A stretch of 64,000 nt of DNA, from contig CBDCXM010000008.1 of assembly GCA_965223855.1 (NCBI GenBank), positions 256,001 to 320,000 of the forward strand, given 5' to 3'. Origin of the DNA: Candidatus Multivoradales bacterium (GTDB taxonomy: Bacteria; Acidobacteriota; Thermoanaerobaculia; Multivoradales; JAHEKO01). Below, one piece after another: positions 24,731-38,498 of the stretch. The notes below the pieces were generated by a model. The model was not told the DNA's origin, did no database searches, and worked only from the letters and a program-made list of their open reading frames with translations. Position 1 is the stretch's first letter. Every line of letters begins with the position of its first letter. The position numbers and the translations under genes are program-made.

Positions 24731-26059
24731 GTGAGACGAACCATCCAAGTTGCCGTGATTCTGGGCCTGCTGGGCACGGCGGGCATCGCGCACGGCCAGC
24801 AGTCCGAGCTGGCCTTCGTCATCCAGAACCTGTTCGGCACCATCGAACTCGACAACGACTTTCACGAGGCCCACTTCTCGGGCGAACAGCAGCTCGAGCT
24901 GATCAACGACACCTTCGTCGCCGCCTTCGCACCGGCGCTGACAACGCTCCCGGTCGGTTCGCCCGGCGGCGGCTTCGCCTACAACTACGACCCGGACACC
25001 GGCGTCTTCACGCGGGCCAGTGAGTCCTTCGGCTCGCTCTTCTCGGAGCGTGCTCTGACGATCGGCCGCGGCAAGTGGAACATCGGTCTCTCGGCCCAGT
25101 CGGTCGAGTTCGACGACTACGGCTCGATCGAGCTGTCGCGGCGCGGCGTCAACTTCCAGCTCCTCCATCTCGACACCGGCGAGAACGGCCGGCTCAATCC
25201 GTTCTTCGAGGGCGATGTCATCTCGACTCAGATGCAGGTCGATCTCGCGACCGACTCGACGGTGCTGGTCGTGACCTACGGCGTCACCGACAAGTTCGAC
25301 GTCTCGTTCGCCGTGCCGCAGGTCGAGACGCAGCTCGACGTCGAAGCTCGCCTCGACATCCTGCGGCTCTCCAGTGACGAGCTCGGGTCGGCGATCCACG
25401 GCTTCAATCTCAACGACCCGAACCTTCAGGTACTCAACGAAGACTCGGCCATCGCACGCAGCTCCGCCAGCGCATCCGGAATCGGAGACGTCCTCGTGCG
25501 TGGCAAGTACCGCTTCCGCGACGCCCCCGGCGGCGGCATGGCCGCAGGAGTCGATCTGCGGCTGGCGACCGGCGACGAGCGCAAGCTCCTCGGCACCGGC
25601 GGCACCCAGGTCAAGATGTTCCTGATCGGCAGCCGCGAGTTCGGCAGGTTCGCCCCCTTGTTCAACCTCGGCTACACCTTCTCCGGCGTCGGCGGCCAGG
25701 TGCTCGACACCCTGCCGGACGAGATCAACTACTCGGTCGGTTTCGCGATCGCCGCCGGCCAGCGCTTCACCATCAACGGCGACCTCGTCGGCCGCCGCCT
25801 GCTCGACGCCCCCGGCCTTCGGCAGTCGAGCGACGACTTCTTCTTCGCCATGAGCAACGGCGGCGAGGTGTTCGACACCCGGCTGCCGACCGTCGATCGC
25901 ACCATCGACGACCAGGACATCTCCTTCGGCTCCATCGGCTTCCGCCTCAACCCGAAGGGCTCGCTGCTGATCTCCGCCAACGCGATCTTCTCGCTCTCCG
26001 ACGACGGCCTGATCGACCAGGACGTCATCCCGGTCTTCTCGATCGACTACAGCTTCTAG
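24731..26059 (+). CDS. Outer-membrane beta-barrel protein (MetA-pathway/'transporter'-like)
   Basis: Signal peptide (AHG-Q), amphipathic strands, SGIGDVLVRGKYRF, LATGD...LGTG, C-terminal Phe (IDYSF). Confidence 0.8.
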   Translation: MRRTIQVAVILGLLGTAGIAHGQQSELAFVIQNLFGTIELDNDFHEAHFSGEQQLELINDTFVAAFAPALTTLPVGSPGGGFAYNYDPDTGVFTRASESFGSLFSERALTIGRGKWNIGLSAQSVEFDDYGSIELSRRGVNFQLLHLDTGENGRLNPFFEGDVISTQMQVDLATDSTVLVVTYGVTDKFDVSFAVPQVETQLDVEARLDILRLSSDELGSAIHGFNLNDPNLQVLNEDSAIARSSASASGIGDVLVRGKYRFRDAPGGGMAAGVDLRLATGDERKLLGTGGTQVKMFLIGSREFGRFAPLFNLGYTFSGVGGQVLDTLPDEINYSVGFAIAAGQRFTINGDLVGRRLLDAPGLRQSSDDFFFAMSNGGEVFDTRLPTVDRTIDDQDISFGSIGFRLNPKGSLLISANAIFSLSDDGLIDQDVIPVFSIDYSF

Positions 26060-26083
26060 GAGGGCGTCAGCCCCGAAGAACCC

Positions 26084-26109
26084 AGGCGGCCCCGCGGGGC
26101 CGCCTTTTT
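26084..26109 (+). terminator. Rho-independent terminator
   Basis: AGGCGGCCC-loop-GGGCCGCC followed by TTTTT. Confidence 0.85.
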
Positions 26110-26159
26110 CCTGTAGCCGAGGCCGGGTGCCGCGAGAGCAGAACCGGCGACTAAGCCAG

Positions 26160-26391
26160 CGTCGAACCTCCGCCTCACGAGCGAAGCGAGTGAGCCACCG
26201 AGGGAATCGCTCCTGAGCACGCACCTGCGCGTGCGACGACCGATCCCCGTCTCCCGCTCCATGAGCGGCAGCGGCTCGTTGAACTCCGTCTCACGAGCGA
26301 AGCGAGTGAACCACCAAGGGAATCGCTCCTGAGCACGCGCCTGCGCGTGCGACGACCGATTCCCGTCTCTCGCTCCATGAGCGGCAGCGAA
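26160..26391. repeat. Two tandem 116-bp units, each containing an inverted copy of the tRNA-Gly 3' end
   Basis: TCACGAGCGAAGCGAGTGA at 26175 and 26291; tRNA-complementary segments at 26241-26262 and 26357-26378. Confidence 0.92.
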
Positions 26392-26466
26392 TGGAGCGGG
26401 AGACGGGAATCGAACCCGCGACCAACGGCTTGGAAGGCCGAGACTCTACCACTGAGTTACTCCCGC
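26392..26466 (-). tRNA. tRNA-Gly (TCC)
   Basis: GCGGGAGTAACTCAG...CTTCCAAG...GGTTCGATTCCC...CGCTCCA. Confidence 0.97.
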
Positions 26467-26582
26467 GATCGGCGACCGCCATGGTGGGCGGCGACCGCCG
26501 CCGAGCGGACTTTACCACCCCGCGAAGGAACCGAGCGGCGACCGCCCGGCAAGGACGGGGCCCTTGCTAGGTTAAGCCTCCG

Positions 26583-28235
26583 ATGCCTCGAAGCCTTACC
26601 AGCACGGCCGCCATCCTCGGCGCCCTCGCCCTGTCGACGAGCTTGTCGAACGCAACCGATGAGGCAGGCTCCTCGGTGTCGGACGACCTGCGCTGCCACG
26701 TCCTCGCGCCCCTCGTGGCCGGCGATGGCCTACCCGAAGTCGAAGCTTCGAAGCCCACCGCTGAACCGGGCCCCGAAGACCTGCTGCGCACCGTACGCAG
26801 CCGGCTCGTCGACTACGAGCTCGCCGAGGAAGCCAGGCGATCGGGCTTCGACGCGACGCCGGAGGTGGCCGAACTCCTTTCCCGTGTGAGAAGACGACAC
26901 CTCGTAGAATCAGCGGAAGCCTCCTTCGTCTCCGAGCGGACGATCGGCGACGACGAGATCCAGACCTACTTCGCCGCCCATCCGCAACGCTTCTCGATCG
27001 ACGAGCGCATCGCCACGCGCTTCCTGATGCTCAAGCTGCCGCCCGAGGCGTCGGCCGAGGCCGTCGACGCGACGCGGCGTCGTCTGGAGGACCTGAGGGA
27101 GAGAATCGTCGCCGGAGAGAGATTCACCGACCTCGCCCGGGAGCACAGCGAGGCCGAGAACGCACGGCGCGGCGGGGCGGTTCAGGCGAGCCCTCGCGGC
27201 ACCCTGCTCGAAGAGTACGAGGCGGCCGCCTGGGAGCTCCAGCCGGGTGAGGTGAGCGACATCGTCGAGCTTCCCGGAGGGCTGGCGTTGATCCTGCTCG
27301 ACGCTCGATTCCCGGCGCGCACCCTCGAGCTCGACGCGGCTCGGCCGCGGATCGAAGCGGAGCTGCGCGATCTGGAGCGGGAGCGACGCCGAAGCGAAGC
27401 GCTCGCGGAGGCCGAACGTCGCTGGCCCCTCCGACGGGACGACGAGGCGAAGACGGTCACCCTCGGAGAGCGCACGCTGACCTTCGAGGAGCTCGGCGTC
27501 GGCGGCCGGCCGCCGCGCTTCGAGGAACGGCTTCAGGCGGCGATCGACGAGCAGCGCCTCGCCCGCTGGGCGCTCGAGTCGGGGGTTGCGGACACGCCGG
27601 AGACCAAAGCACGCTGGAGCAGCGTCGCCGACCGCCTGCTGGCGGGCGAGCTCCTGCGCGCCTCCGCGCGACGCTCGGAGCTCGCTGCAGAGCCGGCCGA
27701 CGAGGCGCGGCTGCGGGCGATGTACGAGCGCCGCGGCGCGAGCCTCGCCGGTCCCGAGCTGCGGGAGTTCGAGGTCGCCTTCGTCGCGGCCGCGAGCGGT
27801 CGGCTGCGCCCCGCTCATGCCGAGGCGACGCGAATCGCCACCGCCTGGCGGGAAGGCTTCCCTCCTCCGCCAGAGACCCTCGAGCGCTGGGGTCCGCTGC
27901 CGAGGAAGCTCCTCGGCAACCGCGTCTCACCCGCCGTCGCCGCTGCCGCCTTCGGGCTGTCAGAGGGCGAAATCAGCCCCGTGCTCCGCATGGAGCGCTA
28001 CGTCCCCGAGCGGGCCCGCTTCGAGCCCGAGGGGTTCATCGTCCTGCGGCTCGTGGCGAAGACGAGTCCCCACCCCCCGACCTACGAGGAGGCGCGACCG
28101 GGGCTCGAGGACGAGCTGCTCGCCGGGCGGATCGACGACAGGGTGCGGCGGCTGCGCGACGAGCGCGGGGCCGCGATCGCGGTGGAAGCGATCCTCGCCG
28201 GTTGCGGGATCACCCTTCCGGCCGGGTTGCGGTAG
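26583..28235 (+). CDS. Secreted PpiC/parvulin-type peptidyl-prolyl isomerase (SurA/PrsA-like chaperone)
   Basis: Signal peptide; FTDLAREHSE...RRGG; AAWELQPGEVSDIV; degenerate second rotamase domain. Confidence 0.8.
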   Translation: MPRSLTSTAAILGALALSTSLSNATDEAGSSVSDDLRCHVLAPLVAGDGLPEVEASKPTAEPGPEDLLRTVRSRLVDYELAEEARRSGFDATPEVAELLSRVRRRHLVESAEASFVSERTIGDDEIQTYFAAHPQRFSIDERIATRFLMLKLPPEASAEAVDATRRRLEDLRERIVAGERFTDLAREHSEAENARRGGAVQASPRGTLLEEYEAAAWELQPGEVSDIVELPGGLALILLDARFPARTLELDAARPRIEAELRDLERERRRSEALAEAERRWPLRRDDEAKTVTLGERTLTFEELGVGGRPPRFEERLQAAIDEQRLARWALESGVADTPETKARWSSVADRLLAGELLRASARRSELAAEPADEARLRAMYERRGASLAGPELREFEVAFVAAASGRLRPAHAEATRIATAWREGFPPPPETLERWGPLPRKLLGNRVSPAVAAAAFGLSEGEISPVLRMERYVPERARFEPEGFIVLRLVAKTSPHPPTYEEARPGLEDELLAGRIDDRVRRLRDERGAAIAVEAILAGCGITLPAGLR

Positions 28236-38236: not shown

Positions 38237-38412
38237 CATCTCAGGCCCGAGGGCCTCTGGCACGCCCTACTAGTCCATCCACCTGCACCAACCACAAGCG
38301 AAGCGAACGATCGTGCCCGGATGGATTCGCTACGAGTCACCTGGGGCCGCAAGGCCCCTGGTGCGAACTCCGAATCCATCCGCCTGCACCAGCAGTGAGC
38401 AAAGCGAACGGA
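38237..38412. repeat. Two degenerate units of about 101 bp containing inverted and direct copies of the tRNA-Tyr 3' end
   Basis: CGAATCCATCCGCCTGCACCA at 38371-38391, degenerate copy at 38270-38290, direct remnant CGGATGGATTCG ending at 38329. Confidence 0.85.
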
Positions 38413-38498
38413 TGGTGGAGGCGGATGGATTCGAACCACCGTAGGCTTACGCCGGCAGATTTACAGTCTGCTGCCTTTGTCCACTCGGCCACACCTCC
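38413..38498 (-). tRNA. tRNA-Tyr (GTA)
   Basis: GGAGGTGTGGCCGAG...CTGTAAA, long variable arm, GGTTCGAATCC...CACCA. Confidence 0.97.

Follow-up and report, generated by a model that had tools for sequence, protein, structure and literature searches.

Repeats linked to tRNA genes have been known in Escherichia coli since 1978, and to our knowledge no origin or function for them has gained acceptance since their description. According to one source, E. coli K-12 carries 22 tRNA-linked repeats (TLRs) at ten loci, each TLR ends in 18-19 nt with the same sequence as the tRNA or rRNA gene upstream has at its 3' end, and their function is unknown (PMC8144298). Here we describe repeat units of a similar plan behind the tRNA-Gly(UCC) gene in a 64,000-nt stretch of the genome of a Candidatus Multivoradales bacterium (contig CBDCXM010000008.1, positions 256,001 to 320,000; hereafter the window). 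The genome that holds the window, G000, comprises 4.52 Mb in 9 contigs with 50 ARAGORN tRNA calls; five tRNA genes lie within the window. The initial annotation had noticed antisense copies of the tRNA 3' end behind this gene and had proposed a non-autonomous tRNA-targeting element or a cis antisense device. Its description of the sequence held good in all its parts. We read the antisense copy, with about an even chance of being right, as the inner arm of a tRNA-linked repeat element without genes, which would insert, or be duplicated, where the tRNA ends on its 3' side.

The tRNA-Gly(UCC) gene, with its CCA encoded, occupies 26392-26466 on the minus strand (ARAGORN and Rfam RF00005, 68.4 bits) and is the sole such gene among the tRNA calls of G000; because of its strand, its trailer extends towards lower coordinates. 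The CCA is followed by a 14-nt spacer (26378-26391, minus strand; TGAGCGGCAGCGAA on the plus strand), the end bases of which pair to leave a 12-nt loop, and then by an inverted copy of tRNA positions 56-76 (26357-26377, minus strand; CGATTCCCGTCTCTCGCTCCA on the plus strand; 20/21 matches). A repeat search returned inverted arms of 22 nt at 26357-26378 and 26391-26412, with 95% complementarity and a separation of 12 nt, in agreement with the 22-bp stem, single mismatch and 12-nt loop first reported. The tRNA-proximal unit 1 spans 116 bp (26276-26391, minus strand), which is also the tandem period. The distal unit 2 (26160-26275, minus strand) holds an inverted copy at 26241-26261 (CGATCCCCGTCTCCCGCTCCA; one mismatch to C56-A76), a stem-loop at 26217-26234 and GGGAATCG at 26202-26209; the second antisense copy lies 116 bp further on, as had been stated. 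The tandem repeats themselves (26168-26273 and 26284-26389) are 94% identical. In plus-strand order the core hairpin of unit 1 (26318-26364) consists of GGGAATCG (26318-26325), CTCCTGA, a stem-loop (26333-26350), GACGAC and CGATTCCC (26357-26364), and it reads GGGAATCG-GTCGTC-hairpin-TCAGGAG-CGATTCCC on the tRNA strand. Both units retain only CGATTCCC (8 nt) in direct orientation, followed by a degenerate stretch, the direct copy having decayed in its acceptor part; the initial annotation had correctly listed these remnants (GGGAATCG at 26202-26209 and 26318-26325).

The core hairpin of unit 1 was predicted at -29.4 kcal/mol as RNA and had a z value of -4.05 as DNA. The 56-nt hairpin that includes the tRNA-Gly end gave -27.4/-24.8 kcal/mol as DNA (z -8.7/-8.1), and 0/200 shuffles folded as well. 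The TCAC-GAGCGAAGCGA-GTGA hairpin, to which the initial annotation had also drawn attention, is present in the units, but by nearest-neighbour energies its predicted stability does not go beyond that of shuffled sequence (z -0.6 to -1.0; 27-54 of 200 shuffles as good). Unit 1 further contains the TCACGAGCGAAGCGAGTGA motif (26291-26309, plus strand), of which another copy lies at 26175-26193. A BLAST search with the 232-bp pair of units found a single place in G000 and short partial matches in 5 of 60 relatives.

Units of this kind are not confined to tRNA-Gly. For every tRNA, the last 21 nt were reverse-complemented and compared with the sequence within 400 nt downstream, the best ungapped match being taken and the same distance upstream serving as control. 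An inverted copy of the tRNA's own 3' end, 14-22 nt past the CCA, was present at 5 of the 50 tRNA calls of G000: Gly-UCC (one mismatch, offset 14), Tyr-GUA (one, offset 21), Glu-CUC (three, offset 22), Glu-UUC (three, offset 17) and Leu-CAA (three, offset 15). The remaining 45 calls showed 4-11 mismatches, and the upstream control 6-11 for 50/50. Each of the five is the sole gene for its anticodon. The tRNA-Tyr(GUA) gene lies in the same window (38413-38498, minus strand) and carries its own unit of like kind; its unit 1 (L066:623-692; 38322-38391, minus strand) begins with an inverted copy of Tyr 66-86 with one mismatch and continues as GGAGTTC-hairpin-TCGTAG-CGAATCCA(TCC). Local alignment revealed arrays of a second type behind five further tRNAs of G000, namely four tRNA-Ser genes and Gln-CUG. 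The four tRNA-Ser arrays are tandem and consist of a spacer, an inverted T-arm, hairpins and a direct copy of positions 56-76 with CCA, and the Gln-CUG trailer has the inverted T-arm only, without a direct copy. There are 3.9 units behind Glu-UUC and 3.5 behind Ser-UGA (172-nt period). Alignments of inverted-copy units with the direct-copy units of tRNA-Ser in both orientations gave z values of at most about 4, most pairs being below 2, and were not significant.

The unit architecture recurs in the independent assemblies of at least nine other genomes (G017, G033, G010, G025, G036, G022, G031, G026 and G006), which belong to the same Thermoanaerobaculia family; the pattern, which the initial annotation had suggested looking for in related genomes, is present in further genera as well. 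The flanks of 37 of 44 tRNAs were covered in G017 and of 37 of 45 in G033. Inverted-type units stand behind 7/37 tRNAs in G017 (Gly-UCC, Tyr, Glu-UUC, Glu-CUC, Leu-CAA, Ala-CGC and Ser-UGA), where Lys-UUU carries a direct-copy unit, and behind 4/37 in G033 (Tyr, Glu-UUC, Glu-CUC and Ala-CGC). The element is gene-less and measures about 95-170 bp. On the tRNA strand, a unit is made up of the reverse complement of tRNA positions 64-76, that of positions 56-63 (e.g. GGGAATCG), a linker, a stem-loop, a second linker and, last, a direct copy that covers 56-63 or more (CGATTCCC). The central stem-loop is perfect, GC-rich and variable in sequence. If A denotes the tRNA 3'-end segment (positions 56-76), the full layout is the tRNA end A, a short spacer, the reverse complement of A, linker-hairpin-linker and a direct copy of A, the inverted copy and the following direct copy closing a long rod-like hairpin. 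These core rods were predicted to fold at -21 to -48 kcal/mol. The copy boundaries are everywhere TT^CGA (T-loop 55|56) and CCA, and the distance from the CCA to the antisense copy is 14-26 nt at most loci. Full direct copies past the hairpin occur in G036 (Tyr, 21/21), G026 (Glu, 21/21) and G031 (Glu, 20/21 against its own tRNA) and in G017 (Lys); those of G036, G026 and G031 indicate that the insert lies between direct repeats of the tRNA's last 21 nt, as is the case for E. coli TLRs and for tRNA attachment (att) sites. The direct repeat of G031 and G022 extends 12-20 nt past the CCA into the flank, the figure for the Glu repeat of G031 being 12-15 nt.

The core is shared between loci, and the arms follow the local tRNA. 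Two linker subfamilies, GGTCGTC...TCAGGAG and TGGGACGTC...CTCAGGTCR, are common to units of different tRNAs and genera, and the central stem differs at every unit. The conservation of the linkers points to a common descent of the cores at different tRNAs. The core pattern GGRWTCGGYCGYC..TCNGGAGCRAWYCC gave nine matches in 3 of 300 genomes of the order, against none for the reversed-pattern control, and every one of the nine directly follows the 3' end of a tRNA gene in the orientation of that gene (Gly, Glu-CUC in two genomes, Glu-UUC and Gln). A looser core regular expression matched the whole G000 genome only at the Gly and Tyr trailers, and the exact pattern GGGAATCGCTCCYGA..CGATTCCCGT found one record across all GTDB representatives. 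One core may stand behind several tRNAs, as in G017 (Glu-UUC, Ser-UGA, Glu-CUC and Ala), where core subfamilies are also mixed behind a single tRNA (Glu-CUC and Ala-CGC), and the Glu-UUC core of G031 resembles the Lys-UUU core of G017. The covariation of repeat and tRNA that the initial annotation had suggested looking for was seen in three T-loop variants mirrored by the arms: TTCGATT in tRNA-Glu-CUC of G033 goes with GGGAATCG/CGATTCCC, TTCGAAT in tRNA-Glu-CUC of G000 with GGGATTC/CGAATCCC, and TTCAAAT in tRNA-Tyr of G033 with GGATTTG/CAAATCC. RNAalifold on 25 units gave a 7-bp basal helix in which three pairs are changed on both sides, tracking the T-loop of the tRNA itself.

The units are gained or lost between close relatives. 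Among 30 tRNA-Tyr loci of the family, 15 have a tRNA-Gly gene 1-38 nt behind tRNA-Tyr (one of these, in G005, is flagged unpublished), six have a unit (G000, G017, G022, G025, G033 and G036) and nine have other flanks. All five unit-bearing genera (5/5) also include a member genome without the unit at tRNA-Tyr. Within genus g7, the Tyr-Gly spacer measures 6 nt in G010, 132 nt with one unit in G025 and 230 nt with two units in G033. The 25 tRNA-Glu-UUC loci comprise six with clear units, one with a degenerate unit, five at which the contig ends at the tRNA and 13 with none. At these five, the contigs stop exactly at the tRNA 3' end (G028:C11, G032:C33, G013:C307, G015:C277 and G010:C126; L182, L188, L189, L194 and L201), which suggests unassembled repeat arrays beyond. 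Among 29 tRNA-Gly(UCC) loci, G000 counted, units were found in G000 and G017 only; in the empty-site comparison at tRNA-Gly inside the genus, the flanks were not alignable. At the tRNA-Gly(UCC) locus L050 of G029, an inverted 18/21 match (GAGCGGGAGACCGGAATCG) lies 279 nt past the tRNA in what is apparently coding sequence, with no core. That the family is found only at tRNAs, with a shared core, arms matching the host tRNA and presence or absence among congeners, supports the initial proposal of the footprint of a non-autonomous tRNA-targeting element.

The ground plan is that of the E. coli repeats. Both directly follow a tRNA gene on its 3' side and share its strand, with one or more tandem units per locus (one to five for TLRs), and both, where the units here are complete, end in a copy of the tRNA 3' end that starts from the T-loop and includes the CCA. 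In the consensus of RtT (RF00391), the Rfam family of these repeats, GgGaaGGAU pairs with AUCCuuCcC, the start of the 3'-end copy, and the tail ccaCCACCA stays unpaired; in both cases the outermost helix is formed by the complement of the T-loop and 3' T-stem and the start of the direct copy. The initial annotation was therefore right that E. coli TLRs contain direct copies, but not that they contain only these, since the RtT consensus pairs a 9-nt T-loop/T-stem complement with the copy start. The tRNA-Ser arrays of G000 share the TLR layout. The RtT consensus and the Gly units both hold the GAGCG(A)AGCGAG motif, and the consensus contains cgAGCGaAGcgAGA, which equals the GAGCGAAGCGAG motif pointed out initially. 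In G000 this motif is carried by the tRNA strand behind Ser-UGA and by the other strand behind Gly, and 8 of its 194 genomic occurrences fall within 700 nt 3' of tRNAs, as against 1.5 expected.

There are also differences between the Gly units and E. coli TLRs. Their complement spans all 21 nt, including acceptor strand and CCA, and lies 14 nt past the CCA, and their direct copy is only the 8 nt of CGATTCCC, short of the 18-19 nt described for TLRs. Direct copies of TLR length are present at sister loci (G036 Tyr, G026 Glu and the tRNA-Ser arrays of G000). There is no sequence or covariance-model similarity between the units and RtT, and the phylum here is Acidobacteriota. In the Rfam searches, three RtT copies in the E. 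coli tyrT/tyrV region, where the repeats measure 178 bp, scored 134-138 bits as control. RF00391 (gathering threshold 45 bits) was absent among matches to E=10 in the window at 25000-28000 and to E=1 in eight other arrays, and membership of this family found no support. Only tRNA reached its gathering score in the window region; the other arrays gave a weak match to sX4 over tRNA-Ser and its trailer (35 bits against a threshold of 70) and a weak one to mascRNA, and the one additional family there to exceed its gathering score was a bacterial signal recognition particle RNA in L072. Since they have the same ground plan as RtT without matching RF00391, we regard the units as an inverted-arm variant of the TLR kind and not as RtT members. 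A literature search for inverted-arm tRNA-linked repeats found only papers on E. coli TLRs.

Other known systems show more partial likeness. Integron attC and CTX-phi attP(+) are recombination sites formed by a folded single strand. As these sites are generally described, the units resemble them in forming an imperfect hairpin, which has a paired box at its base, a spacer in its middle that is in part unpaired and a variable stem at its end; this fold would likewise show a double-stranded copy of the target, and the units form tandem arrays beside a fixed site. Unlike them, the units are gene-less, have no demonstrated IntI- or Xer-type partner and would have the tRNA T-loop as target. The attC consensus for R''/R' is RYYYAAC / GTTRRRY. 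Identity with integron attC was rejected, as this R-box consensus is absent and the basal boxes (GGGAATCG/CGATTCCC) vary with the tRNA. Integrative elements that target tRNA genes include a T-loop sublocation class, and their gene-less derivatives are the cis-mobilizable elements (CIMEs). The units differ from both in their size (about 100 bp), an internal inverted attachment (att) block, the lack of an integrase and arrays of near-identical units. With repetitive extragenic palindromes (REP), their mosaic elements (BIME) and the associated Y1 HUH transposases (RAYT), they share short, GC-rich, imperfect, intergenic palindromes and a genome with 16 Y1_Tnp-like open reading frames (ORFs); they differ in being strictly tRNA-linked, in numbering about a dozen rather than hundreds and in having tRNA-derived arms. 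A REP/RAYT system was rejected on the grounds that BLAST found the 232-bp pair of units only once in the genome, that the core expression matches tRNA trailers only and that the repeats beside a Y1-like gene are not similar.

The units have no consistent link to HUH, reverse transcriptase or integrase genes. Besides the Y1_Tnp-like ORFs, profile searches of G000 found five matches to Phage_integrase (PF00589), one to RVT_1 and one to GIY-YIG (in a 611-aa ORF), and none of these genes is next to an inverted-copy array; the linked nuclease, HUH or reverse transcriptase gene that had been envisaged was accordingly not found there. The sole RVT_1 match (C9:609797-610348) lies far from every array, which speaks against the proposed link to tRNA priming. 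Comparison of the units with the 155-nt repeats beside a Y1-like gene gave a best local score of 24 (shuffle mean 19.5, maximum 28). Y1-like genes occur in 5/5 relatives tested, whether units stand at the three tRNAs examined or not; their presence was rejected as a discriminator on this ground, and the suggested HUH-like link is not supported. One array of G033 abuts an integrase ORF that is truncated at its N-terminus, and tblastn with the integrase of L117 retrieved ordinary island integrases only. Islands do target the tRNA-Gly(UCC) gene, since its positions 27-75 recur at other places in G010, G029 and G033 as direct copies of 49 nt. Among seven stretches with island-borne partial tRNA-Gly copies, the exact 3'-end string was found in two, both in G010, and no unit lay behind either. 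At the window locus the neighbour of the units is a convergent gene (24731-26059) with its terminator-like hairpin (26084-26105, plus strand), which is outside the element and is the first terminator-like site past the units; this differs from the layout of an att remnant of a genomic island. No promoter-like site was found near the Gly units of the window on either strand.

The possible role of the trailer as RNA was assessed by folding. In minimum free energy structures of the tRNA with its first unit, the trailer is predicted to pair with 18-20 of the last 21 tRNA nt at 9/9 loci, and the masked fold would be better than tRNA and trailer folded apart by 7.9-18.8 kcal/mol. The whole Gly region folds with a z of -3.8. 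Masking of the pre-tRNA 3' end by the trailer is therefore what folding predicts. In G033 the Tyr units fill the Tyr-Gly spacer of a Thr-Tyr-Gly cluster in which a promoter-like site was seen upstream of Thr alone and the spacer showed nothing terminator-like, an arrangement in which the units are very probably transcribed. When 27 cores were folded on both strands, the fold of the tRNA strand was more stable for 13 cores and that of the opposite strand for 14, with 13 versus 17 G-U pairs; this lack of strand preference is expected for a DNA-level palindrome. The arms were compared over 200 positions from 25 first units, two or three of which are doubtful. At 170 positions, tRNA, inverted arm and direct copy are identical; the inverted arm alone differs at 25 and the direct copy alone at four, and both arms agree against the tRNA at one. 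That the direct copy is held to the tRNA while the inverted arm drifts gives no sign of selection for pairing. The sole case of arms against tRNA is the tRNA-Glu(UUC) unit of G006 (L195), with arms GGGAATC/CGATTCCC (GATT variant) beside a GAAT tRNA.

The anatomy of the units, their strict tRNA linkage, the shared core, the arms that follow the tRNA, the mixed arrays and the gain/loss polymorphism within genera are observed features, from which we infer routes of spread and retargeting. The gene-less element would reach the tRNA 3' boundary through an event in DNA, which may be recombination or a template switch during replication that makes use of the 56-76 segment of the tRNA itself. It may then multiply locally by unequal exchange or slippage between direct copies, and be lost likewise. 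The direct copy would be kept identical to the tRNA by conversion, and the inverted arm would drift. Units would be passively co-transcribed with the tRNA and removed in processing. Several points weigh against this reading. No enzyme, circular form or excision junction was found, and mobility is deduced from the patchy distribution alone; repeated precise loss of an ancestral element would give the same pattern. The matching of the arms to a new tRNA is left unexplained, and the inverted-copy and tRNA-Ser units are grouped by architecture alone. The linkers are conserved, and the central hairpin turns over yet stays paired, which simple selfish-DNA decay does not explain and which could reflect a protein or RNA function. 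Tyr, Glu-UUC and Glu-CUC carry units in 3/3 surveyed genera, and such persistence on the same tRNA species could reflect long retention and hence function. The masking predicted at 9/9 loci would likewise be unexpected if the units were neutral passengers behind tRNA genes present in a single copy.

These last points lead to the alternative that the trailer is a selected cis-acting RNA that masks its own pre-tRNA. Its antisense 21-mer would compete with the acceptor and T stems, and either CGATTCCC, acting as a decoy, or a helicase or RNase would decide on tRNA release, resulting in regulated maturation or turnover. We regard this as unlikely. The predicted pairing and its energy gain are in its favor, as is the narrow distance between CCA and antisense copy, and the G033 units inside the Thr-Tyr-Gly cluster must be transcribed at a place where the spacer of 15 relatives is only 1-38 nt. 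However, G-U pairs and folding energy show no strand asymmetry, a joint change of both arms was seen once as against 25 for the inverted arm alone, and congeners lack the unit on the same sole-copy tRNA; of the cis antisense device proposed initially, the predicted masking stands, and strand bias and compensatory change, which should accompany it, are wanting. In the tRNA-Ser arrays the acceptor-strand copy is direct and not inverted, so full antisense masking is not common to these arrays. Thermodynamic folds also ignore co-transcriptional folding, modification and fast RNase cleavage. The absence of an RNA-type strand bias speaks for another alternative, an attachment site folded from single-stranded DNA, in which each unit would be, or derive from, a miniature integrative element whose fold makes the 21-nt tRNA core double-stranded. 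By analogy with CTX-phi attP(+) and integron attC as usually described, a tyrosine recombinase would exchange strands at T-loop 55|56, and arrays would be successive integrations with the newest by the tRNA. The invariant copy boundaries, the bracketing direct repeats, the arrays of mixed core subfamilies, the truncated integrase ORF beside one array and an attC-like arrangement of basal box, conserved and partly unpaired 6x7-nt spacer and variable terminal hairpin would all agree with this. We nevertheless consider it equally unlikely. None of the five PF00589 matches of G000 is beside an inverted-copy array, the L117 homologues are island integrases, and the integron R-box consensus is absent. 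The near-identity of units within arrays fits local duplication better than serial capture, the direct repeats that run 12-20 nt past the CCA in G031 and G022 also suggest local duplication, and the inverted arm is the least conserved arm. The stronger form of this idea is likewise unlikely in our view: the units, roughly 100 nt long, would be programmable folded attachment sites, each with a double-stranded hairpin replica of the last 21 nt of one tRNA, in which the arms set the tRNA target, integration takes place at 55|56, probably as single-stranded DNA, the tRNA is regenerated and older copies are pushed outward. If it were true, a single class of miniature integrative elements, widespread yet unrecognised, would have left both the E. 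coli TLRs and the units of Acidobacteriota as its footprints.

A mutational by-product would need neither element nor function: template switching during replication at small hairpins by the tRNA end would create quasi-palindromes and then 'correct' them. The palindromes are indeed centered on the spacer (A, spacer, reverse complement of A) and on the central hairpin, their stems are near-perfect without strand bias, and some spacers are themselves perfect hairpins (Glu-UUC and Leu-CAA in G000, Ala in G033). Palindrome extension would not, however, give linkers such as GGTCGTC and TCAGGAG, which are conserved yet non-complementary, nor one core at different tRNAs and genera, nor a 55|56 boundary identical in all tRNAs, and we judge this explanation improbable. 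In one feature, the units resemble a retroelement primer-binding site, as TGGAGCGAGAGACGGGAATCG on the tRNA strand is a TGG-initiated complement of the tRNA 3' end. In a tRNA-primed retroelement, such a 21-mer would be restored whenever the end of the tRNA is copied as far as the T-loop; the antisense copy does begin with TGG, cover the 3'-terminal 21 nt and stop within the T-loop, and the copies in E. coli TLRs are 18-19 nt (PMC8144298). Against this, the only RVT_1 match of G000 is far from any array, and the units, of about 100 bp, have no long-terminal-repeat-like repeats and no coding capacity, which makes a footprint of this kind very improbable. We give hardly any credence to the possibilities that assembly produced the units by fold-back or that they are an att fragment of the ordinary kind, displaced from a genomic island. 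Assembly of hairpins and tandem repeats is difficult, and the contigs of five relatives end at the 3' end of tRNA-Glu-UUC, but the recurrence of the architecture in the nine or more independent assemblies argues against an artefact; and although tRNA-Gly(UCC) is a real island target, att repeats of islands are direct, long and kilobases away.

The presence of the TLR ground plan, a T-loop/T-stem complement paired to a copy of the tRNA end, in a phylum distant from E. coli is accompanied by a new variant feature: the complement extends over the whole 3' end, and thermodynamically it should trap essential sole-copy tRNAs in a 22-bp duplex, if the folding model holds. Origin, retargeting and active unmasking become testable because single genera offer both filled and empty sites and because the modular cores are re-matched to their tRNAs. 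The units have no demonstrated benefit to the cell. Even if nothing special is behind them, they form a class of repeats that lacks annotation, interrupts assemblies at tRNA genes and causes false pseudo-tRNA calls. An instance is the 90-nt 'tRNA-Val(aac)' called by ARAGORN at C9:791116-791205, inside the tRNA-Ser-GGA array and on the strand opposite to it. The inverted T-arm of a repeat unit reads as a sense T-arm, and the arrays yield false calls for this reason.

Other observations concern the surroundings of these and other tRNA genes in G000. The trailer of tRNA-Ser-CGA (C9:789930-790052; L072) can form mutually exclusive hairpins, GTTCGCAG..CTGCGAAC and GGTCCTGC..GCAGGACC, with an attenuator-like overlap of stems. 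About 450 nt past this array lies a bacterial small signal recognition particle RNA (RF00169, 66.9 bits; L072:308-406, C9:789507-789605). In contrast to the units, an ordinary island is present at tRNA-Arg(CCG), with a 54-nt direct copy of the 3' part of the tRNA 5.2 kb away and an integrase beside the tRNA (C9:528420-528473 and C9:532309-533741). The Y1-like family of this genome consists of ORFs of about 300 aa (MSRKLRYLPEE...) with weak PF01797 matches (24-37 bits), and some copies share 90-94% DNA identity. It includes C9:525457-526684 and about 15 more (e.g. C9:92629-93863, C9:3053046-3054035 and C4:7729-8964), each trailed by its own 155-nt tandem repeats (C9:525160-525614), and its features resemble those of an IS200/IS605- or RAYT-like element that is active and has structure in its 3' region. 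Two copies (C9:3053046-3054035 and C9:3056710-3057408) adjoin a pair of identical tRNA-Leu(UAA) genes (C9:3055281-3055367 and C9:3057867-3057953), which are 2.6 kb apart and have near-identical downstream flanks.

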